Part shown: piece after piece, positions 7,206-37,592 of the stretch
How positions within the stretch are numbered: the stretch's first letter is position 1
Layout of the letters: every line of letters begins with the position of its first letter
Source: a virus
Length of the DNA: 64,000 bases
Strand: one strand, 5' to 3'
IMG/VR virus record: IMGVR_UViG_3300016469_000277
Coordinates: 44,308 to 108,307 of that record
Notes under the pieces: model-generated
Databases searched by the model: none
Told to the model about the DNA's origin: nothing
The model's input: only the letters and a program-made list of their open reading frames with translations
Translations under genes and position numbers: made by a program

Positions 7206-7511
7206 TTATTCTGATTTAAAGGTTTCGTTGTAGTATTCTTCTGGATTGGGGGATATTGATGTAGTTCTAAAATTAAATCCATCAATAGTACCTGAGTGGT
7301 AACTATTTTTGATTTGCTCCTTCTCCATTGCTTTGGCTTCATCAACCACATTCCAAAGTGTGCTTTGAGGTAGGGTATATGGAAAAGCAATAAATCCACG
7401 ATTGATTAATATTTGAATCAGTCTATCTACTGCTGTTTGTTTTTTATATAGTCCGTCTTTTGCATCATCGTTCATAATGTCTATAATTAGTTTCTTTTGT
7501 TGGTCTTTCAT
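7206..7511 (-). CDS. KQTAV-family small protein (likely start MKDQQ)
   Basis: Paralogous motif; ATG 4 nt after the TATATTTG box at 7516-7523. Confidence 0.65.
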   Translation of the reverse strand: MKDQQKKLIIDIMNDDAKDGLYKKQTAVDRLIQILINRGFIAFPYTLPQSTLWNVVDEAKAMEKEQIKNSYHSGTIDGFNFRTTSISPNPEEYYNETFKSE

Positions 7512-7522
7512 TTTACAAATAT

Positions 7523-7555
7523 AAAAGAAAGAGGGGGATTTCTCCCCCACTCTCT
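7523..7555 (-). terminator. Intrinsic terminator
   Basis: GGGGGA/TCCCCC hairpin with T-rich tail on the minus strand. Confidence 0.65.
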
Positions 7556-9341: not shown

Positions 9342-9644
9342 TTAGTTTAGTTGTTTTCTTTCTATGGTAGTCCAGCCAAAAAATGTAGCAAACTGTTGAG
9401 CTGCTCTTTTGCAAGCTTCTTTGTTTTTAGAAGTTATTTGCATTAGTTCTTTTCTAGCCGGTAAGCTGTTATAAAGATAATTAGTTAACCAATCTACAAA
9501 CTCTTGTTCTTGTTTTTCAGTCCAAGTATAATTAAGATACCAATCGTCTTGTTTAACATATTCGTCTGAGTAAGCTATACCAGTTTCCTCAAACATTTTC
9601 TCTAAAATGATCCGTAAATGTTCCTTAATTGGCGTTTTTCTCAT
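9342..9644 (-). CDS. Hypothetical protein
   Basis: ORF with TATCTTTG box (9649-9656) 4 nt upstream of the ATG. Confidence 0.65.
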   Translation of the reverse strand: MRKTPIKEHLRIILEKMFEETGIAYSDEYVKQDDWYLNYTWTEKQEQEFVDWLTNYLYNSLPARKELMQITSKNKEACKRAAQQFATFFGWTTIERKQLN

Positions 9645-9667
9645 AACACAAAGATAAAGAAAGTGTA

Positions 9668-17629: not shown

Positions 17630-19894
17630 TCAGTCAAATAATCTTTCAATATTATTTTCGGCTTCAAAATAAGATTCTGGTACAAAAAAGTAAGAACCAC
17701 AGTGATCGCAAGATAATATATCTGTGCAATCGTCGTGTTTTACTATTGAGTCACTAAAACAACAAGGACAATAACCTAGTTCTAACTCTGCAATAACTTC
17801 ATCATCTGTTATTTCTTCGTATTCTAGAACATGACGATACTTGTAAGTTGGAATTTTAAGTTTAGGCTTTTTTTGTTCAAAAGAAGAATTCCAATCGTCT
17901 ACTTCGTAGTCCTCACTCCATCTTTCTCCATAATTAACTGTAGTAGGCTTAAGTGGATAATCAGAAGTAGCTTTGTGTTCCCACTTAGTCTTTCCTAGAG
18001 TAGTTAAACACTCGTAACCAAAATTAATAGAATTTTCCAAAGCTTGTATAGAGGTAATTTCTTGTTCGGAATGCTCGTCAAAATAACCGGCTGATATGTT
18101 GCACCCAATGCAATTTACCCCAGGCAACTTAACAATCTCTCCAACATCAGTATAAACTCCATTGCTTTCAAAAAACTCATATTTTTCCATAATAGGTTTA
18201 GCTGCGTCAACAAACTCCTTACTGCAAGTTTTTACACCATTAGTATGAGTTATTAACTCCAATCCTTTATATGCATTCCTATCCATTTGAAATATCATGG
18301 AACAGTCATGAAAAAAGGCTACATCAGCTTGTTTACTTCCCACACCTTATTGTTACCATGTAAGCTCTTTATCTTACATTTCTGCACTTTCTTTTGTTAT
18401 ATGTGCAGTTCAGACTATATCATCACCATATAGGTGTTCCGCGCTCGTGGTGTTTTACCGTCCTTAACTTAATAGTAGGACTCCATACACTAGTCGTTGA
18501 ACCTTCAATGCGTTTCTGCAAAGCTTGGCTGCTGATTGTCCTCTTCAGGATTTTCCAGCAATTCACGGAATTTTAATTGGTCATGTGGGTATTTTCTATC
18601 TAAATAACAAGTTGCGTCTTTATAAATATAATTTAAAAATAAATTTTTTTCTTCAGTAAATTGCCAAACAAAAACATTTCTTTTAGTGTATCGAATGTTT
18701 CCAAAAGGTTTTTTAAATTTATTTTTAAAATAATTTTTAAAGTCTTCTAAAATTGAAGAAGTTTTACTAGTAAAAAGAATATTATTTCCAGAAAAACATC
18801 CATCTCCGTCAAAATAACCTCTTATAAAATGTCTAATCAAGTTTTCTAGAATATTAGGAATTTTTAAATCCATATAGGTTTTTCTATTTCCTAATCCAAG
18901 TTTTATCAAATGATCTACAAATTTTGTAGAACTAATTGATAAAGCATATTGATTTTTTCTCTTATACTTTTGATTATTCATAGGAGAGATAAACTCTTTT
19001 CCTTCTCTAAAATGTAAAGGTCCTTTATGACCTAACTCTTTTTTAAAAAATTCAAGAATGTGTTTATCTTTTTCTGCTAAATTAATAGTAAATGATTTTT
19101 CAATCCAAAAATCACTTCTTTTTCTAATGTAAATTCCTCCATCGGCAAACACAAATCCTAAAAAATATGCTTTAGCTTCTGTATCAATATTTTCAAAATA
19201 ATCTTCATTATACTGATACTTTTTACTAAATTTTTTTAAAGGATATTCAAAATCATAGTGTTTAAAAAACTTTTTTAAGTATTTTGAACACTTATTAAAA
19301 TGTTTACCAGTTTTAGTTATTGACCCGTTACTTAAATAGTAGGTATAGTATTGTTGTACGTTTTCTAAAGATTCCATATTACAAATATAATACAAAATTT
19401 AAAAAACCCAACACTCCTATACACATTTATTTTTAACCAATTTCTTCGTCTTTAAAAAATGCAATCTTAATCTCGTCGATAAGATCAAACATCATCAAAG
19501 CAAAAAGACAACCATTCTTGTCATCAAAGCCTACACCGCATTGCAAACCTGTTTCGTTGTCTATACCGTAAACAAATTTGTCTGTTCTTTCTATGCGGAG
19601 TTCTTTTTTGAAATCTTGGTTAATGTCGGTATGCGCTATAACACAAGGATACAAATCAGTATCTCCTTTGACTGCATAGAGATTTCCAAATTTATCTTGA
19701 GAGACTCTTACTCCAGGAGTTTTTTCTAATCTTTCTTTAAGCCAATTAATAAATCTATCTTGATGAGCAGATCCGCTAGGAGTTTGCTTATAAAGTAAAG
19801 TAAAAAATAAAGACCAATCTATTTTGATTGGATTGTCAAGTTTGGGAAAAGAGGGTTTAGCCTCTGAATACCCGTAGTTATAGTAAGAACGCAT
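17630..19894 (-). CDS. M28/M20-like zinc peptidase, spliced: join(19894..19435,18345..17630), about 391 aa, with C-terminal zinc ribbon
   Basis: Exon 1 has AHTD, GFDDKNG and EEIG; exon 2 has (C)VGS, QMDR, YTD, NISAGY..EH. Splicing restores EEIGCVGS in frame. Confidence 0.85.
18346..19434 (-). mobile_element. Group I self-splicing intron (1089 nt) with a homing endonuclease in the P1 loop
   Basis: P AATTGCTGGAAA, Q AATCAGCAG, R GTTCAACGACTA, S ATGATATAGTCT; P3 TTCCGTG/CGCGGAA. IGS GACCAATT pairs with the 5' exon AATTGGTT with a terminal U-G; P10 CCCACAT pairs with the 3' exon GTGTGGG; terminal G at 18346. Confidence 0.92.
18505..19377 (-). CDS. Intron-encoded double-motif LAGLIDADG homing endonuclease
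   Basis: AYFLGFVFADGGI and HFIRGYFDGDGCF motifs; likely start MESLE 4 nt after TATATTTG (19382-19389); the 3' end reads into the intron core. Confidence 0.9.
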   Translation of the reverse strand: MESLENVQQYYTYYLSNGSITKTGKHFNKCSKYLKKFFKHYDFEYPLKKFSKKYQYNEDYFENIDTEAKAYFLGFVFADGGIYIRKRSDFWIEKSFTINLAEKDKHILEFFKKELGHKGPLHFREGKEFISPMNNQKYKRKNQYALSISSTKFVDHLIKLGLGNRKTYMDLKIPNILENLIRHFIRGYFDGDGCFSGNNILFTSKTSSILEDFKNYFKNKFKKPFGNIRYTKRNVFVWQFTEEKNLFLNYIYKDATCYLDRKYPHDQLKFRELLENPEEDNQQPSFAETH

Positions 19895-27618: not shown

Positions 27619-27725
27619 TGCGAGTGACAGGATTCGAACCTGTACGTAGGACCTACAATTAGATGATCGGCTATCCTACAGTAGTGATGATAATACTTGC
27701 GTCTAACCAATTCCGCCACACTCGC
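27619..27725 (-). ncRNA. tRNA-Leu-like RNA with non-canonical anticodon arm and enlarged variable arm (107 nt)
   Basis: Acceptor GCGAGTG/CACTCGC+A; D arm TGGCGGAATTGGTTAGACGC; T arm ACAGGTTCGAATCCTGT; anticodon stem AGTA/TACT with a 10-nt loop; variable stem GTAGGA/TCCTAC. Confidence 0.75.
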
Positions 27726-28680: not shown

Positions 28681-28812
28681 TAGTCAGGACAGGATTCGAA
28701 CCTGTATGATGTACTGCTTCACTTCCAAAACGGTTGATTCCCTTGTATGGACGCATCGACACATCTCCTATTTAATCTTATAGTAGCGTCTAACCAATTC
28801 CGCCACCTGACT
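28681..28812 (-). ncRNA. tRNA-Leu-like RNA with non-canonical anticodon arm and very large variable arm (132 nt)
   Basis: Acceptor AGTCAGG/CCTGACT+A; D and T arms identical to the 27619 element; anticodon stem CTAT/ATAG with an 8-nt loop; variable stem GATGT/ACATC enclosing about 45 nt. Confidence 0.75.
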
Positions 28813-28985: not shown

Positions 28986-29384
28986 TTACCAAATAAGATG
29001 CTTAACTATTTCTAGTACTTCTTCGTTAGGGATAGTTTGACAACCTACTTGAATTTTTCCTTTTTTGAAGGTTACTGTATAATCTCCTACGTTAACAATT
29101 GGAGGGGCTTTAAAAGAAGGATCTAACTCAAGAGAAATAATCTCTACTTTATTTTCTGTTAAGTTTACTGAGTTTCCCTTTCTAATACTCCAAGAATAAT
29201 CAAATCCTAATTTGTCATAACAGAGAGCTCCATTTTTTACGTTTTGACAAAGATAAATGTCTCCATCTTCTTTTTGGATTCTTCCTTCACACTCAACTTC
29301 TTCAATCTTAGCTTTGAATTTAGTACCTACTGGTACATTATCCCAATCAGGGATTAATACGGTTTTAAATAAGTTATTTTCCAT
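28986..29384 (-). CDS. Hypothetical protein
   Basis: ORF. Confidence 0.65.
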   Translation of the reverse strand: MENNLFKTVLIPDWDNVPVGTKFKAKIEEVECEGRIQKEDGDIYLCQNVKNGALCYDKLGFDYSWSIRKGNSVNLTENKVEIISLELDPSFKAPPIVNVGDYTVTFKKGKIQVGCQTIPNEEVLEIVKHLIW

Positions 29385-29406
29385 GGTTTTTTAGTTTAAT
29401 TTTTAG

Positions 29407-29482
29407 TAGCCGGAAGGGGAATCGAACCACCTATCTCCAAGATGAAATCTTGTTGTCCTAAAATCCATTAGACGATCCGGCC
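29407..29482 (-). tRNA. tRNA-Glu(UUC), CCA not encoded
   Basis: Acceptor GGCCGGA/TCCGGCT, D arm GTCTAATGG..AGGAC, anticodon loop ATTTCAT, T loop TTCGATT; one mismatch each in the anticodon and T stems. Confidence 0.8.
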
Positions 29483-29743
29483 ATTTTACCAAATTAGAAA
29501 CAGCGAAAACCGCCCAAAGTAAAAGAGTCAGTAAGTTTCTTTACAGAAGCTTTAGCTTTGTTAGCAATTACTCCTTCGCTTTCTCTTTTCTCTACTGTAG
29601 TAGTAGATTTCTGTGTTTGATACGTTGTCTTTTTCATAGTTTTTATAGTTTAGTTTTTCTTTTTCTTGATTTACGAACATCAACAGGTTTAGCCTCAAGA
29701 CAAAACCCTAAAATAAAAGCAGAAAGAATTAGGATTACGTAAG

Positions 29744-29974
29744 TCATAATCCTAATTCCTCGTACTCGTTAAATTCAATGTCTCTAATATCTGCTTCTAG
29801 GAAACATTTTTCAATATTTCCCATTACAGAATTAGATGGACTTGGTTTACCCTCGTTAAGTAACGATTCGTAGTGACTAATAATTTTAGAAACACTAACC
29901 CCATTGCGAACTGTGCCGTCAATGAGATTAGTGAATCTAATTTTAGTTTTTTCAAGAGCTTCAGTCTTTGTCAT
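29744..29974 (-). CDS. Hypothetical protein (likely start MTKTEAL)
   Basis: ORF tiling. Confidence 0.5.
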   Translation of the reverse strand: MTKTEALEKTKIRFTNLIDGTVRNGVSVSKIISHYESLLNEGKPSPSNSVMGNIEKCFLEADIRDIEFNEYEELGL

Positions 29975-30773
29975 TTGGTTCCTCCTCGCAAAGATTATCT
30001 TTAGCAAACTCATATTCTTCCATAACAGATTTAAAGCGATAATTTCTGCCAAATCTTTCTTTACGGTCATTATCCCAGTAATAATCAATAGCAAGAATCT
30101 TATCAAGCAAACTCAAATGATAAATTTGTGATCCTTCTAACTTTTTTATTTCTATAAAAGGAGGACCATAAGTAAACATACCTGTTTGTGCTTGGTCAAT
30201 ACGAACTTCATAACCTTGCGACAAAGACTCTATTATTTCGTCTTTAAGCAATAGAAAGTATTTACGATATTCATCTTCATAACTTTCTTTTAGTTCATAA
30301 AACATACTTTCTATTGCTTCTTCTTGTAATTTATAAAGAATGTTACGATCTTTAGAAAGTAAATCAGCAACAGAAGTGTAAACTTTAGGATTACTACTGA
30401 ATTGACTATCCACTAAAAAGTATATTTTAGCACTGATTGGATAACTTTCTTCTGTAGAGTAATCATATTCACTTCCTTCATAAGTATAGATACCAAGCTC
30501 AAAACTTTTATCAATTGAGCTATTAAATGTACTGTCAGTTAGTTCAATAGTATCAATATACTTAATGTCGTGATCGGGATAAGCAAGTATTTTTGCTTTT
30601 TCTTGTTCAATCTCTTCATACCTAGGACTACCTGGTTTGTAGTCATTTGAAAAAAGACGATGAACTTGTTTTTTTTGATGATACTCTGTTACAATTTCTG
30701 CAAAAGAGTCAGAAGCTTGTGTAGTTAGGATATTATCCAACACAAAAATGTTTTTTAGTTTTATTTTTCTCAT
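29961..30773 (-). CDS. Hypothetical protein
   Basis: Long ORF. Confidence 0.65.
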   Translation of the reverse strand: MRKIKLKNIFVLDNILTTQASDSFAEIVTEYHQKKQVHRLFSNDYKPGSPRYEEIEQEKAKILAYPDHDIKYIDTIELTDSTFNSSIDKSFELGIYTYEGSEYDYSTEESYPISAKIYFLVDSQFSSNPKVYTSVADLLSKDRNILYKLQEEAIESMFYELKESYEDEYRKYFLLLKDEIIESLSQGYEVRIDQAQTGMFTYGPPFIEIKKLEGSQIYHLSLLDKILAIDYYWDNDRKERFGRNYRFKSVMEEYEFAKDNLCEEEPNDKD

Positions 30774-30812
30774 AGTTTTAGTTTAGTTTAAGTTTAAGAA
30801 AAGAGAGCCCTA

Positions 30813-31118
30813 TTACAGGCTCTCATTTACGTCTTCCGCTGTATAATAGTGTTTACCAGAACGCCATTGATACCATTCGTATTCTTCGTAATTATAAAAT
30901 TGTTCATAATCACAAGTAATATCTTCAGGATCTTGAGAATAAAATTCTTCTTTTGTCATACTAGGAACAAAGACTTTATTTTTTTCATTCTCTTGTTCTA
31001 CGTAGACTTTAGCATCTTCTTCCCTAGCGAATACTTTGTAGAGATAAACACGATACTCTTCGTAAGGCAGTTCGTTATCATACCATACGAGGTAGACTTT
31101 TTTAACAGTATTTTCCAT
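30813..31118 (-). CDS. Hypothetical protein (KVYLV...VF..EE.AK.Y family)
   Basis: ORF immediately downstream of a twister ribozyme. Confidence 0.65.
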   Translation of the reverse strand: MENTVKKVYLVWYDNELPYEEYRVYLYKVFAREEDAKVYVEQENEKNKVFVPSMTKEEFYSQDPEDITCDYEQFYNYEEYEWYQWRSGKHYYTAEDVNESL

Positions 31119-31143
31119 AGTTTATACTTTTTAGTTTAGTTTA

Positions 31144-31290
31144 AAATTTACCCCTCTGCACTCAGTTGTAACTCCAGGTTTATACCCTGAGATTCAGACA
31201 TTACTACGCTGCAGTCTTTCTCTGCAGATGCTCGTATTCTTATTACAACTGTCAGCCCTTGGGAAGCTGAAGTGGTGCGTTAAAAAATTT
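31144..31290 (-). ncRNA. Twister ribozyme (type P1) with extended P5; predicted cleavage at 31282/31281
   Basis: UAA-CGCA-CC...UCAGC-UUCCCAAGG-GCUGA; P5 CAGUUGUAA/UUACAACUG; AGUGCA-GAGGG; T1 CCC/GGG and T2 CC/GG; one C-A mismatch in P2. Confidence 0.75.
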
Positions 31291-31533
31291 GAACCTGTAA
31301 ATAATAAACAGCAAGGTGTGGACTTTTACCACAGTTAAGGAAGTTTGCAATTCCTTTCACAACCTCATGTTAGGCTTGTACTTCTTGTACACCCTCGCCA
31401 TTTATTTTTATTATCCCTCTGCACTCAGTTGTAATAGATAGCCAGTAGTACTACAGTATGGGTTACATACTGTCCATTGCTGATTCCAACGCAGCATTAC
31501 CTGAAGTTGGCGGTCACTATCTGTTACAACTGC

Positions 31534-32067
31534 TCACCCTTGGTGAGTGTGCTGAGGAGTGTAGTACCACTTATATCCATAAGCGGTTTTACTACTATCT
31601 TTAGCTGCTTTTGACAAGCAGGTAGTTTTATAATTTAATTCTCTTTCTATGTCTTTCATACAAGACCACTCTTTGATAAATAACCCATCAAGAGTGTATT
31701 GGTATAGTTTTTTAGCTTTACCATGTTTAGCTCCAGAAAACATTTGAGAAAGTTTTTTCTTAGTTTCTTCAGTATGCTTAGGTCTATTTCCTCCTTTATT
31801 GAGATTAAGACCTTTGTTTTCATCTTTCCAATAGCATTTATAAAAAGCAATCCAATATTGCTCTCTTTCATCCGCTAAAGTGTCAGAAACCTCTTCTATT
31901 ATCTCACACACATGATTCGCAAAACCATATTTTTTCAAAGAGTTATGTAATCTATATTGAGTTCTACAATGTAGAATTTTATATAAATTCATTCTCTTTT
32001 TATAATCCTTTGTTTGCCCAATATATACCTTTCCTGTTGGACTTGTGATTTTGTATATTGTTATCAT
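31534..32067 (-). CDS. GIY-YIG homing endonuclease with NUMOD3 and NUMOD1-like DNA-binding modules
   Basis: TIYKIT...VYIGQT...R...E...N; KHTEETKKKLS; YQYTLDG.FIKEW...TAYGYKW; ATG 4 nt after TATATTTG (32072-32079). Confidence 0.9.
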   Translation of the reverse strand: MITIYKITSPTGKVYIGQTKDYKKRMNLYKILHCRTQYRLHNSLKKYGFANHVCEIIEEVSDTLADEREQYWIAFYKCYWKDENKGLNLNKGGNRPKHTEETKKKLSQMFSGAKHGKAKKLYQYTLDGLFIKEWSCMKDIERELNYKTTCLSKAAKDSSKTAYGYKWYYTPQHTHQG

Positions 32068-32137
32068 AATACAAATATACAAAATAATGCACCATTTCCC
32101 AAGGGCTTAGGAAAATAAATTTCTTTATCACCCTTGG
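31534..32137 (-). mobile_element. Free-standing endonuclease insertion bounded by a 10-bp direct repeat CCAAGGGTGA
   Basis: tcacccttgg at 31534-31543 and 32128-32137; removing 594 bp restores a continuous twister. Confidence 0.75.
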
Positions 32138-32322
32138 GAAACTGATTAACTAACAATATACAACAGAGGATTTTACAACTGCTGTTATTATTCTTCATTA
32201 ATCAGTGTGGTTTCACATCTTGACCCATCAAGCAGGGCAGCGACAAGAAGTCTTTATATCCACGTGAGTTATGGTGCATTAATAAATTGCTATTTAACGG
32301 ATAGCTCCGACAGAATCAGCTT

Positions 32323-32538
32323 TTATGTATAAGCATTAATAAAAGCGTATTGAATAAGTTTAAAGCCTTCAGTTTCTTTCATTTCATCACAAGGATGAAT
32401 GTAAGCATAACTTACGTTACTAAAAGCCCCGTGCCACACTGCTTTAACAAAGGCATCTCTACCAAATTCAGCAATGAAAACATTCATGGAGTTGATTTCT
32501 TCAACTGAAACCATTTCTCCTATACCTACTGTAAACAT
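32323..32538 (-). CDS. Hypothetical protein
   Basis: ORF. Confidence 0.55.
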   Translation of the reverse strand: MFTVGIGEMVSVEEINSMNVFIAEFGRDAFVKAVWHGAFSNVSYAYIHPCDEMKETEGFKLIQYAFINAYT

Positions 32539-32615
32539 AGTTTTTGATTGAAATTTCGTTTTTTCGCAAAGAAGGTTGTTCTCTCCCTACTAAGAGAGAG
32601 AGAAACAACCAATCT

Positions 32616-32849
32616 TCAACCTTCGTAACTTTGACTTTCAAATGAATTGAGTTCTGACTCATTTTGTAAATCAATTAGCTGTTGTAGTTTATTAGCAGGA
32701 AAACTAATATAATAATACTCAGCTTCAATTTCTTTTTTTGTTAATGCAACAGCGTATCTTTCAATAACTGTTGTACCTGTAGAGTAATTGATAAACTCTA
32801 CTGTAAAAGGATTATATCCTATTACGTTGTGTGAAATATTATTGCTCAT
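32616..32849 (-). CDS. Hypothetical protein
   Basis: ORF followed by a hairpin at about 32572-32612. Confidence 0.55.
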   Translation of the reverse strand: MSNNISHNVIGYNPFTVEFINYSTGTTVIERYAVALTKKEIEAEYYYISFPANKLQQLIDLQNESELNSFESQSYEG

Positions 32850-33079
32850 AGTTTATGTTGATTTTTAGTCGTTTTTGTTTGATAGCCAGTTTGTTCGGAA
32901 ATTTTTCACTTTTTTCAAAGGCAATTTTTTGAGAATTTTTGTAAGATGAGGAGGTAAAAACCGCCTTTTTTCTACAAATTTACCTATATTTTAGTAGATA
33001 AATCTCGAGTTGTCTCCGAAATTCCCGGGAAAACACCAACTCATCTCATACTTTTACTACAAATAAGAGAAAAAAGCAC

Positions 33080-33106
33080 AAAAAAGGGGGAAATTAATCC
33101 CCCTTT
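33080..33106 (-). terminator. Intrinsic terminator
   Basis: AAAGGGGGA/TCCCCCTTT hairpin plus T tract. Confidence 0.75.
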
Positions 33107-33109
33107 AAG

Positions 33110-33379
33110 TTAAAAGTTGATACTTTCTAGGACAAAACGCCTGTAAGTTATCTCATTTACTGTTCTTGGTTCTATTTCTCTAATAGTAATTGTCTCTGCT
33201 TGTTTAAGTTGAAACATATCACTAATGGGAAACTGTGCTTTACTGCCAATAATAATCTTTTCGGATTTACCGTCAAAGTCTACTGTGATAGCAGCGTAGT
33301 CACGAACATAGGTGAAACCTTTTACAGGCTTTGTGAAGGTGGCGTTAGCCACGATAGCGGATTTAGTTGTAGTGCTCAT
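33110..33379 (-). CDS. Small beta-rich hypothetical protein (likely start MSTTTK)
   Basis: ORF between a conserved upstream motif and a terminator. Confidence 0.65.
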   Translation of the reverse strand: MSTTTKSAIVANATFTKPVKGFTYVRDYAAITVDFDGKSEKIIIGSKAQFPISDMFQLKQAETITIREIEPRTVNEITYRRFVLESINF

Positions 33380-33410
33380 TGTATTTAGTTTTAATGCCAC
33401 ATTAGGCACT

Positions 33411-33427
33411 ACCAACAAAGGGGCATT
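33411..33427 (-). promoter_or_regulatory. Conserved 17-bp upstream motif, copy 1 (AATGCCCCTTTGTTGGT)
   Basis: 16 of 17 positions identical to 34792-34808; both precede small minus-strand genes. Confidence 0.5.
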
Positions 33428-33484
33428 CCTAAAAAAATACCCTACTACAACCTAATCTCTATCTAAGATAGACTTAACTTAAAG

Positions 33485-33543
33485 TTCTGTTTCGACCCTC
33501 AATTAGGTCATCATCAGCAGAGAGAATAACTCTCTGGACAGAA
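33485..33543 (-). ncRNA. Type III hammerhead ribozyme; cleavage after GUC at 33537/33536
   Basis: UUCUG-UC|CAGAGAG-UUAUU-CUCUCUG-CUGAUGA-U-GACC-UAAUUGAG-GGUC-GAAA-CAGAA. Confidence 0.9.
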
Positions 33544-33936
33544 ATTAAAACAAGCAGTAGATAAACTCTCGAAATATAGTGGCCACTATAAACGATACAA
33601 AGATATTTACAGATTTCTCAGGTCTGCTTTCTCTTTAACACAATTGAGAATGTGTTCGTACTTCTCTACTACTTGTTTTAATAGTATATATCAGGAATAT
33701 ACCAGCACCGCTGTTTTTGCTCGTAGTCTACAGCTTAACCACAAGCCCCTATCCTTTCCCCTATTTACTACATTCGGGAATACTTTCAGGTAATTTTTAA
33801 AGATTGCATGTTTTTGAATAACGCTTTTGTATTTGGTTAACTCATAAGCGTCGGATAGAAAGCAAAAGAGTTTGGTATGCAGTAATATACCATTCTCTCT
33901 CTTTACTACAAGGAATGCCTTCCATAGTAGTGCTTT

Positions 33937-33996
33937 TTTCTGTTTCGGGACTCGATTATCCCATCATCAGGTAGAACAAAAGTCCTACGACAGAAA
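33937..33996 (-). ncRNA. Type III hammerhead ribozyme; cleavage after GUC at 33989/33988
   Basis: UUUCUG-UC|GUAGGAC-UUUU-GUUCUAC-CUGAUGA-U-GGGA-UAAUCGAG-UCCC-GAAA-CAGAAA. Confidence 0.9.
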
Positions 33997-34002
33997 GGGA
34001 GA

Positions 34003-34332
34003 CTAAGCTCCCTGACTTTTAAGTTGGTAGAACGAATGACTTCTATACCTTTCTTCAAGATAGTTAAGTATTCTTTCTAGTATGGGTGCTTCTTCAGCCC
34101 ACATATCTGACTTGAGATAGTGGTCACGAAGTTCTTGCGAACCCAAGTCTTTACCACTGGCTATCTGAAAGCCAATAGTATCGAACCAATTAAATGCACC
34201 TTCTACATAGCCACCACCATATTTGGTTTCGTGAACAGGTACATTAAGCACTTCATTGCAGATATCTTCATCTAATTTGTTGAGAGATACTGCTTCGTTT
34301 GTTTCTTTACTGTATAGTTTAAAGCAAATCAT
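34003..34332 (-). CDS. Hypothetical protein
   Basis: ORF ending just upstream of a hammerhead. Confidence 0.65.
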   Translation of the reverse strand: MICFKLYSKETNEAVSLNKLDEDICNEVLNVPVHETKYGGGYVEGAFNWFDTIGFQIASGKDLGSQELRDHYLKSDMWAEEAPILERILNYLEERYRSHSFYQLKSQGA

Positions 34333-34411
34333 AGTTAAGTTAGTCTTTCAGATTATCCTGCTAACGGACAAGAGCAGTTTTGTTTTGAGAACCCAACAGA
34401 AACGAAACGAC

Positions 34412-34436
34412 GAAAAAGGGGGGTTGCCCCCCCTTG
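34412..34436 (-). terminator. Intrinsic terminator with GCAA tetraloop
   Basis: G-run/C-run hairpin plus T tract. Confidence 0.75.
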
Positions 34437-34439
34437 TCG

Positions 34440-34751
34440 TTAGAACATTGTGCTGAAGCGTGGGTAATCGCCCTTGGTTGTGGAGTTGATACCACGGAAG
34501 ATAAGGGTGATTTCCGAATTCTTGAACGAGAGAACTTCAGCAAGTGTGCCGTCAAGTAACGCATTGAAGCGAGTCTTGAATTTGGGACAATCGACATAGA
34601 TGCGACAGATTGGCTTACCATTGATAGGTGCCATAGGCTGCACATTGGTGATTGTGCCGTGGATGCACTCTTCGATGTTGATTTTTGCCAAGTCTTTGGC
34701 TTCAGTTGGTGCTTGCGTAGCAAGGCTTGCGATGTTGAATGTATTTGACAT
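34440..34751 (-). CDS. First gene of the left arm; small beta-rich protein (likely start MSNTFN)
   Basis: ORF with visibly higher GC than the genome and its own terminator. Confidence 0.65.
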   Translation of the reverse strand: MSNTFNIASLATQAPTEAKDLAKINIEECIHGTITNVQPMAPINGKPICRIYVDCPKFKTRFNALLDGTLAEVLSFKNSEITLIFRGINSTTKGDYPRFSTMF

Positions 34752-37172: not shown

Positions 37173-37592
37173 TTGTCAACAAATTACCCACAATTTAATG
37201 TTTTATAACTTTTAATGTTAGTTATTTACTATATTTGTTTTATGAAAACCATAAAACCAAAAAGAGTAACTGACTCAAACGAATTCTTACTACAGGGTAG
37301 TACAAAGTTGAAGGTAGGTTCTTGGAACTTAGCAGCTAAGGATTCTTTTTTGAGAAAAGAGTTTATGAAGGTTTTTAAAAAGAACCAAGACAACCAGGTA
37401 ATCTATCCATTGTTTGACTAATGTTGTCCAAGGAAGAAATTAATTTAAGGTTTAGTGAAGGCAATGTCTCTATCCAGGAAGGATTAGAAATCCTCAGAAG
37501 CTACATCTTCCTGCGCAAGAACCAAGACATTTCAGTTATACCTCCTAGAAATTCTATGGAGATGGGAATGTTTCAGTGGTTTCTTGAAATCA

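Follow-up and report, generated by a model that had tools for sequence, protein, structure and literature searches.

A probable insertion of a GIY-YIG homing-endonuclease cassette into a twister-like RNA gene of an uncultured gut-type phage

Analysis of a 64-kb window, the right 64 kb of the 108-kb IMG/VR virus record IMGVR_UViG_3300016469_000277, revealed a GIY-YIG homing-endonuclease gene lying between the two parts of a structured RNA whose core resembled that of the twister self-cleaving ribozyme. This RNA, called copy B, is probably a twister-type RNA gene that was invaded by a mobile GIY-YIG homing-endonuclease cassette. The minus strand carried the genes from position 1 to ~33.5 kb of the window, and the element was therefore read on that strand (Table 1). 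The cassette of 594 bp split copy B after the 3' strand of P4, just 5' of P5: the 5' part of the RNA continued through the L4 loop and GGGUGA (to 32128), and GAG and P5 resumed at 31533. When the two parts were joined, the RNA folded into P1, P2, P4, an internal domain called class II and P5 at -85 kcal/mol (ViennaRNA, used for RNA folding), and the nested P1, P2, P4 and P5 were the structure scored on the uninterrupted copy A. The two copies were tied by one 24-nt and one 20-nt common sequence block in the window repeat analysis. A covariance model, R1, was built from our own alignment and used to score and find copies; in this phage genome it detected the RNA in two copies only. A first-pass annotation of this stretch had proposed that deleting the 594 bp gives a continuous ribozyme parallel to an intact copy, which agreed with the fold and with the score of copy A (100.7 bits). 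It had also recognized the GIY-YIG open reading frame (ORF), which the Pfam and PHROG matches given below bore out, whereas its description of the RNA as multi-copy did not hold for a genome with two copies.

Relatives of the RNA were sought in viral contigs by a pattern scan (CCCAAGG-N(85-115)-GTGCAGAGGG) that returned at least 118 loci, and the whole RNA element was present in ~75 loci among the matches listed; the fetched contigs carrying relatives are given L-numbers here, L210 being a metagenome contig. Further occupied loci were found by protein scans, two in viral contigs and one in metagenome contigs. A codon-level DNA pattern returned only the occupied contigs already known, and the output of an alignment-based scan for more occupied loci was dominated by distant GIY-YIG genes. 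The products of the close gene homologues were 91% (L123), 82% (L122) and 83% (L210) identical in amino acids to that of the window, and all four loci broke after CCCAAGGGUGA. The cassettes were 81-99% identical across the four loci, and the flanking genes, the 5' halves of the ribozymes and the variable sequences carried in P5 (the P5 cargos) were unrelated, with a different cargo in each locus. L122 and L210 shared a 670-nt block of 99.4% identity that extended from L4 to the 5' strand of P5; outside this block they were unrelated, having a class II and a class I 5' half, respectively, and different P5 cargos and flanking ORFs. The P5 cargo of copy B (31426-31532) had 90% identity with the cargo of an intact class I ribozyme in an unrelated contig (L072 3908-4033), in which P4 and the 5' half were different, and the P5 cargos behave as exchangeable modules. 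The cassette bears the marks of an element that passes from one ribozyme gene to another by exchange within the conserved core, and insertion and mobility are both well supported by this comparison.

Most members of the RNA family were unoccupied. The exact site spanning the insertion point, CCCAAGG-GTGAG-CAGTTGTA, was present in 37 of 86 distinct intact copies, and the three cassette-bearing virus records, two of them fragments, held no intact site but only truncated junction copies. The cassette was thereby found to be present at some and absent from other copies of a conserved site, and the same cassette occurred in unrelated contexts. The first-pass annotation had suggested looking for empty alleles in related genomes; unoccupied copies proved to be common, but a syntenic empty allele was not found. 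The flanking 270-aa ORF had no relative in viral contigs, a blastn search of positions 29000-34500 against all loci matched only ribozyme and nuclease pieces, and deposited phages yielded zero blastn matches to the region. A second GIY-YIG gene was also observed in L122 (737-1255, 45% identical). It was flanked (region 689-1255) by a pristine ribozyme 5' fragment (AAUGCACCAUAACUCACGUGGAUAUAAA) on one side and a degenerate version of it on the other. The gene stopped at the UAA of the cleavage site of the next ribozyme and had the same leader, TTGTATCTTTGTAAC-ATG; it repeats the pattern at another ribozyme position.

The nuclease matched PF01541 (GIY-YIG) with 29.1 bits against a cutoff of 22.6 and a PHROG homing-endonuclease family at 2e-22, the PHROG matches covering residues 6-174. 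Matches to NUMOD1 (18.8 bits) and NUMOD3 (17.5 bits) were weak and both under the Pfam cutoffs, and the best solved relative was the catalytic domain of I-TevI (1LN0, E=6e-5). In 30 aligned sequences, Y15, R25, E69 and N88 were invariant and Y5 was conserved in at least 90%. The dN/dS among the four occupied-locus genes was 0.08-0.10 and no frameshifts were found; as judged from these values, the gene has remained intact and is under purifying selection. The protein database contained 31 related clusters at 55-97% identity. Among the 30 aligned sequences (29 clusters and the window protein), the C-terminus was HEQL in eight, HKQL in one, GEQL in one and H-x-H-Q-G in four. The endings HEQL-stop and HQG-stop were translated twister-like sequences, GAGCAGUUGUAA and CAAGGGUGA, and accounted for ~14 of the 30. 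The over-called N-termini of several clusters were the translated conserved leader TTGTATATTTGTAAC-ATG, with the over-extension LYICN-M in P0004 and P0010 and variants of it in P0003 and P0028, and the over-called N-terminus of P0024 was a translated L4 (..LPKG..) and its complement (..KPWE..). This back-translation from protein clusters argues that the association of nuclease and ribozyme may be old and general. No such ribozyme was found with model R1 within 1.5 kb of distant GIY-YIG relatives (45% identity or less).

The sequence pattern of the box before the nuclease start, TA-nn-TTTG-N4-ATG, was found at five places in the window, where 1.33 would be expected, and may represent promoter plus start for leaderless messages in this phage. 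The leader of the nuclease gene was conserved in L123 and in both GIY-YIG genes of L122. The nuclease gene probably has its own start of expression, at the promoter-like box before the ATG, and the arrangement suggests a nearly leaderless mRNA that would exclude the 5' half of the ribozyme.

The RNA family is widespread in uncultured phages and uncatalogued in Rfam. In the fetched viral contigs, model R1 found ~93 copies in 74 loci, including copies outside the pattern selection. The twister core was present in the family as U^AA, P2, P4, the L4 loop UUCCCAAGG and GAGGG. The consensus started with UAAUGCACCAU and a linker, followed by P4 (5 bp) closing UUCCCAAGG, and its 3' portion consisted of P5 (CAGUUGUAA, a variable 70-100 nt and UUACAACUG), AG, UGCA and GAGGG, with P1 able to form from the AU-rich flanks. 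This order of core elements was that of published type-P1 twisters with an optional P5. In a 52-sequence alignment used for core conservation, UAA and GAGGG, with the candidate general acid A and the candidate general base G, were invariant, an invariance partly imposed by the search pattern, and both were retained also in the extra copies outside the pattern selection. Covariation was first counted in 33 hand-checked sequences, which showed compensatory changes in all 5 pairs of P4 and 6 of the 10 pairs of P5; when combined with the counts from an alignment of 106 distinct rows, which was fitted to the nested helices and not to T1 or T2, the changes covered 5/5 pairs of P4, 5/5 of P2 and 8/10 of P5. 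In the 106 rows, 90% of the cells were paired overall vs 28-54% with slid partners, and 25 of 31 pairs had changes on both sides. P2 and P4 were paired in 95-99% of cells, and P1 was weak (59-64%). P2 changed from UGCAC/GUGCA to UGCGU/ACGCA in four copies and to UGUAC/GUACA in two, these copies being outside the pattern selection. The pseudoknot T1, formed by CCCA of L4 with AGGG of the L1 3' strand, was 100% complementary, and CCC/GGG was replaced by CAC/GUG in L046 (3221-3399), a single compensatory event.

Two classes of copies were distinguished by P4. Class I, which includes copy A, had a plain P4 hairpin, and class II had a ~110-nt conserved domain from the P4 5' strand to L4, with the skeleton GUGGAUAUAAAGACUUCUU ... 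AAGAUGUGAAACCAC ... ACUGAUUAA ... UUAAUCAGU and variable hairpins; intact class II copies were found in L016, L030, L078/L080 and L205 (three). The class II domain (window 32142-32263; L016, L030, L078, L205) gave no Rfam match, and a hammerhead within it was rejected by eye, as the domain had no CUGAUGA box and one hairpin only. Compact copies with a short P5 were found in L201-L209 (for example, L204 6515-6591), and the contig L201 also carried a tmRNA at 69-403 (Rfam, 100.3 bits). The P5 cargo of the ribozyme at L119 12531-12689 held a tRNA T-arm-like sequence, GGTTCAAGTCCTA. Tandem ribozyme arrays were observed in L205 (7250-8640), L076 (9870-10480) and L109 (13512-13913); some of the tandem copies abut as GAGGG-AUAAUGCACC, so that the end of one copy is the start of the next. 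Copy A had C at 31279, the first P2 position, where 91 of the 94 family members scored had U; the C.A mismatch adjoins the predicted active site, and the activity of copy A is therefore uncertain.

The twister ribozyme was reportedly described by Roth et al. in 2014. At the gathering threshold and at E<=10, Rfam gave no twister match in the window, copies A and B included, in an 8-kb stretch or in the compact relatives, and no twister-sister, hammerhead or group I match at the element. RF03160 and RF02684, which with RF02681 are the twister entries, were also searched directly without a match, compact relatives included. As Rfam was negative, twister membership rests on our own alignment and on published descriptions. 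In twisters, a U-A cleavage step is followed by A, P2 lies beside an A.G juxtaposition, and CCCA of L4 pairs with AGGG in the L1 3' strand to form T1 (PMC5408937; PMC6154101); P1 is reported to be dispensable (PMC5408937). The family shared with them the order P1 - U^AA - P2 - L2 - P4/L4 - (P5) - P2' - GAGGG - P1', the pairing of L4 CCCAA with GGG with its one compensatory change, the A.G juxtaposition beside P2, and an optional peripheral P5, and like them was found in phage DNA close to other small ribozymes. It differed from them around L2. Covariation joined the first C of L2 to the 3' strand, with C-G replaced by U-A in L015, L076, L042 and L066, which makes it a fifth pair of P2. Within L4, the last G paired with the first U, and this pair was U-A in the twister-like L076 10319-10479; A also stood in place of the last G in two weaker matches, L205 8473-8632 and L005 7447-7636. 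T2, which in twisters joins a conserved GC dinucleotide of L2 to two bulged nucleotides of L4, was left with at most one C:G pair and did not agree with the twister definition; in the comparison with described twisters it was put at 1-2 C:G pairs at most. The closing pair of L4 was U.G, unlike the near-invariant G-C of twisters, P5 was nearly always present with its long variable cargo, unlike the ~1% of annotated twisters that have P5 (PMC6154101), and the large domain within the P4 loop of one subgroup was also unlike twister. The family is called a twister-like variant outside Rfam because no Rfam model detects it and its T2/L2 region differs. Its ribozyme identity is strongly suggested, and as a putative twister it would be expected to work like one. 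The location of the gene between P4 and P5 of a twister, as given by the first-pass annotation, stood for the insertion point, but not for an Rfam twister match or a standard T2/L2.

Both ends of the cassette contained sequence related to the ribozyme. The 10-bp repeat noted in the first-pass annotation was present at both sites, with the downstream copy reading Q-G-stop, but it did not prove to be an insertion footprint. Window positions 31403-31576 aligned end to end to model R1 (56.6 bits), and for this reason the repeat was assigned to a degenerate duplicate of the 5' half, which no longer contained a cleavage site, the C of L2 or the L4 UUCC. The ORF end read GCAC-ACUCAC-CAAGG-GUGAG vs the canonical UGCACCAUAACUCACUUCCCAAGGGUGAG, and the last codons of the nuclease consisted of ribozyme-derived sequence. 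The counterpart in L122/L210 was better preserved (UUGCA-UUAACUCAU-CCAAGGGUGAG, 59.6 bits). L123 had no degenerate 5' half, and its ORF ended in H-E-Q-L-stop, encoded by GAG CAG UUG UAA, which was the 3' end of P4 and the P5 stem. A target-site duplication was rejected, as L123 carries this insertion but no repeat, and in the window the repeat lay within the longer degenerate ribozyme copy. A group I intron around the ORF was also rejected: no Intron_gpI match was found at E<=10 in 30800-32600, and only 60 nt of the 594-bp insert were non-coding.

At the other end, every cassette began with a long hairpin whose outer stem paired L4 with CCUUGGGA, capped by a GAAA tetraloop in L122. In the window this leader hairpin (inverted repeat I18) had a folding energy of -22.7 kcal/mol (z -4.35), and its inner stem differed among L123, L122/L210 and the window by compensating changes. 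The antisense segment UGGUGCAUUA and the anti-L4 strand together made a 21-nt “clamp” on the 5' half of copy B. Both the anti-L4 and the antisense pairings were formed in the fold of 32060-32295 (-73.7 kcal/mol, z -6.5), and in an 890-nt fold the clamp pairings recurred and the degenerate 5' half paired with the 3' strands of P2 and P4. Since both ribozyme halves were masked in the predicted fold, copy B is probably inactive while occupied. In the L122 and L210 cassettes, a short P5 came first together with an entire 3' half, and these completed the 5' half of the recipient to a compact ribozyme like the free-standing ones of L202/L208.

We propose that the nuclease would cut intact ribozyme DNA around TTCCCAAGGGTGAG/CAGTTGTAA (candidate target TTCCCAAGGGTGAGCAGTTGTAA) in a cassette-free phage and that the break would be repaired from a cassette-bearing genome during co-infection, with the short conserved segments of the ribozyme core as homology for the repair. 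The insertion would split the target and shield its carrier. The degenerate copy of the 5' half at the 3' end of the cassette supplies the last codons and accounts for the 10-bp repeat. The 5' end holds antisense copies of L4 and of the cleavage-site strand in the window, and L122/L210 carry a short P5 with a replacement 3' half that rebuilds a compact ribozyme upstream of the gene. A broader scenario, which we put forward tentatively, is a GIY-YIG lineage specialised on small ribozymes, in which the core would serve as target and arms, the cassettes would carry decoy or replacement halves, and escape would drive the diversity of P4. In such a lineage, the invariant core segments of 10-25 nt would be both the cleavage target and portable homology arms, with which the cassette would jump between phages that are otherwise unrelated. 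The replacement 3' half of the L122/L210 type would restore a working ribozyme, and the decoy and antisense strands of the window type would silence the split one.

Several points weighed against an invaded twister-type gene. The nuclease target is a proposed one, the occupied loci read as DNA numbered four, and the search for a close relative of this phage whose corresponding locus is empty found none. The antisense clamp was degenerate in L123, part of it was missing in L122, and it may therefore be the remnant of an inverted duplication instead of a functional adaptation. No Rfam twister model scored the family, compact copies included; L2 read C or CC and the conserved GC of twisters was absent; and P2 behaved as 5 bp, vs 4 in the twister definition. 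In addition, L122 and L210 had a complete ribozyme upstream of the gene, which could there be placed between two ribozymes instead of inside one. Alternatively, the gene could have been a free-standing endonuclease flanked by tandem ribozymes, its ORF end overlapping the start of a downstream ribozyme that decayed; a deletion between the two L4 repeats in the window and L123 would then have removed the 3' part of the upstream ribozyme and left a pair that resembles one split gene. The complete upstream ribozyme of L122 and L210, the end-to-end alignment of the downstream piece as a full degenerate ribozyme, the abutting arrays in L076, L109 and L205, and the second nuclease gene of L122, which ended in the UAA of the next ribozyme, are consistent with such a history. 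However, one ribozyme position marked both the end of the upstream piece and the beginning of the downstream piece in the window and in L123, and excision therefore restores one gene. Both ends of the L122/L210 block fell on this position too, in two ribozymes that differ. If a crossover had taken place in the L4 repeats of L122, L4 would be followed by GGUUCAG, whereas the window has GGGUGAU. On balance, we regard the tandem history as rather unlikely. The two histories are not exclusive; both would imply ribozyme-targeted homing, and they differ on whether the position “inside” the ribozyme was original.

The negative Rfam result even for compact copies, the departure of L2/T2 from the twister definition and the weak P1 could also be explained if the RNA were a structured RNA conserved in phages for some other function and resembled twister only superficially; the insertion would then be that of a nuclease gene into a gene for a non-coding RNA. 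This seemed improbable, as the catalytic and tertiary positions named in the literature (A after the cut, A.G by P2, G-A-GGG and CCCA) were present and invariant, T1 was changed on both sides together in one copy, and a dispensable P1 that can bear imperfections is known for twisters. A vertically inherited cassette, either domesticated with no mobility at present or a decaying remnant, whose shared position reflects common descent would fit the four occupied loci read and the lack of a syntenic empty allele. Such descent is very improbable, since the flanks, 5' halves and P5 cargos were unrelated while the cassettes were 81-99% identical, the dN/dS was ~0.09 and frameshifts were not found.

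The terminase, portal and head proteins encoded in the window matched the PHROG families phrog_6681, 6547 and 11589, which we take to be crAss-like. Two tRNA-like features on the minus strand (27619-27725 and 28681-28812) scored 40.4 and 34.3 bits with the Rfam tRNA model; inserts of 46 and 68 nt replaced their anticodon regions, and ARAGORN called neither of them. The sole standard tRNA was tRNA-Glu at 29406-29482.

Table 1. Positions of the cassette, the nuclease gene and the two RNA copies in the window
Feature	Position	Strand	Basis or remark
GIY-YIG ORF	31534-32082	minus	ORF call, Pfam, PHROG
GIY-YIG/NUMOD homing-endonuclease gene, likely start ATG	31534-32067	minus	177 codons plus stop; aligned relatives
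Promoter-like box TATATTTG-N4-ATG	32065-32079	minus	Bacteroidota-type -7, directly before nuclease start
TA-nn-TTTG-N4-ATG sites	7509-7523, 9642-9656, 19375-19389, 32065-32079	minus	
TA-nn-TTTG-N4-ATG site	37230-37244	plus	
RNA copy A, uninterrupted	31140-31292	minus	100.7 bits with model R1; P4 UCAGC/GCUGA; class I
Copy A, predicted cleavage	between U31282 and A31281	minus	alignment
RNA copy B, split	31411-32286	minus	class II
Copy B, 5' part	32127-32286	minus	sequence; fits family consensus
Copy B, P1 5' strand	~32285-32282	minus	
Copy B, predicted cleavage	between U32281 and A32280	minus	
Copy B, P2 5' strand UGCAC	32278-32274	minus	L2 C at 32273
Copy B, P4 5' strand CUCAC	32268-32264	minus	
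Copy B, P4-internal class II domain	32263-32142	minus	intact in L016, L030, L078, L205
Copy B, L4 UUCCCAAGG	32140-32132	minus	
Copy B, local P4 3' strand GUGAU	32131-32127	minus	
Copy B, 3' part	31411-31537	minus	sequence and model R1
Copy B, P4 3' strand GUGAG	31537-31533	minus	
Copy B, P5 with 89-nt cargo	31532-31426	minus	cargo 90% identical to intact ribozyme of L072
Copy B, P2 3' strand GUGCA	31424-31420	minus	
Copy B, candidate catalytic G and A	31419 (G), 31418 (A)	minus	
Copy B, T1 strand GGG	31417-31415	minus	
Copy B, P1 3' strand	31414-31411	minus	
10-bp direct repeat, upstream copy CCAAGGGUGA	32128-32137	minus	part of L4 and P4 3' strand
10-bp direct repeat, downstream copy CCAAGGGTGA	31534-31543	minus	encodes Q-G-stop
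Degenerate second 5' half (GCAC-ACUCAC-CAAGG)	31538-31553	minus	overlaps ORF end, holds downstream repeat
Cassette leader hairpin	32095-32141	minus	L4 (UUUCCCAAGGG) pairs with CCCUUGGGAAA (32105-32095), loop GAAAU
Antisense segment UGGUGCAUUA	32085-32094	minus	complements cleavage-site/P2/L2 strand UAAUGCACCA (32281-32272); I17

Homes already known for homing endonuclease genes are self-splicing introns, inteins, intergenic spacers and, more recently, large structured RNA genes. The first-pass annotation was not aware of a described case within a small self-cleaving ribozyme, and in agreement with it, full-text literature searches returned no report linking twister or another small self-cleaving ribozyme with a homing endonuclease. 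Like the I-TevI/Seg-type endonucleases, the nuclease described here had a GIY-YIG domain with the Y, Y, R, E and N residues, showed presence/absence polymorphism in a phage host and had a structured leader before the gene; its candidate NUMOD-like DNA-binding modules scored under the Pfam cutoffs. Unlike them, its site was not an intron, intein or intergenic spacer but a gene for a small RNA of self-cleaving type, the insert was not spliced out, and the cassette carried copies of parts of its target. Group I introns with a loop-nested endonuclease are similar in that a selfish gene sits in the periphery of a catalytic RNA whose conserved core is the DNA target; here, in contrast, there was no splicing or exon context and no group I signal was found, and the RNA would cut rather than splice and is predicted to be masked while occupied. 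The nearest published case is that of the non-intron insertions encoding homing endonucleases in rRNA genes of candidate phyla radiation (CPR) bacteria (PMC11270868). In both cases a structured RNA gene carries the nuclease gene in one of its peripheral helices, with no intron around it, but the CPR hosts are large essential bacterial rRNAs, whereas the host here is a phage RNA of ~90-300 nt of a self-cleaving class, and the cassette here bears decoy and replacement halves of its host.

If the insertion into copy B is as proposed, small self-cleaving ribozymes would be a new kind of home for homing endonuclease genes, and any conserved RNA core, however small, could serve as a homing site. The loci would offer a compact system for studying how a selfish gene handles the RNA that it interrupts, with a replacement half in some cassettes vs silencing strands in others. 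The altered T2/P2 region would bear on what is essential to the twister fold, in an abundant family missed by the Rfam models, and the variable P5 cargos and tandem arrays would bear on the biological role of phage ribozymes.

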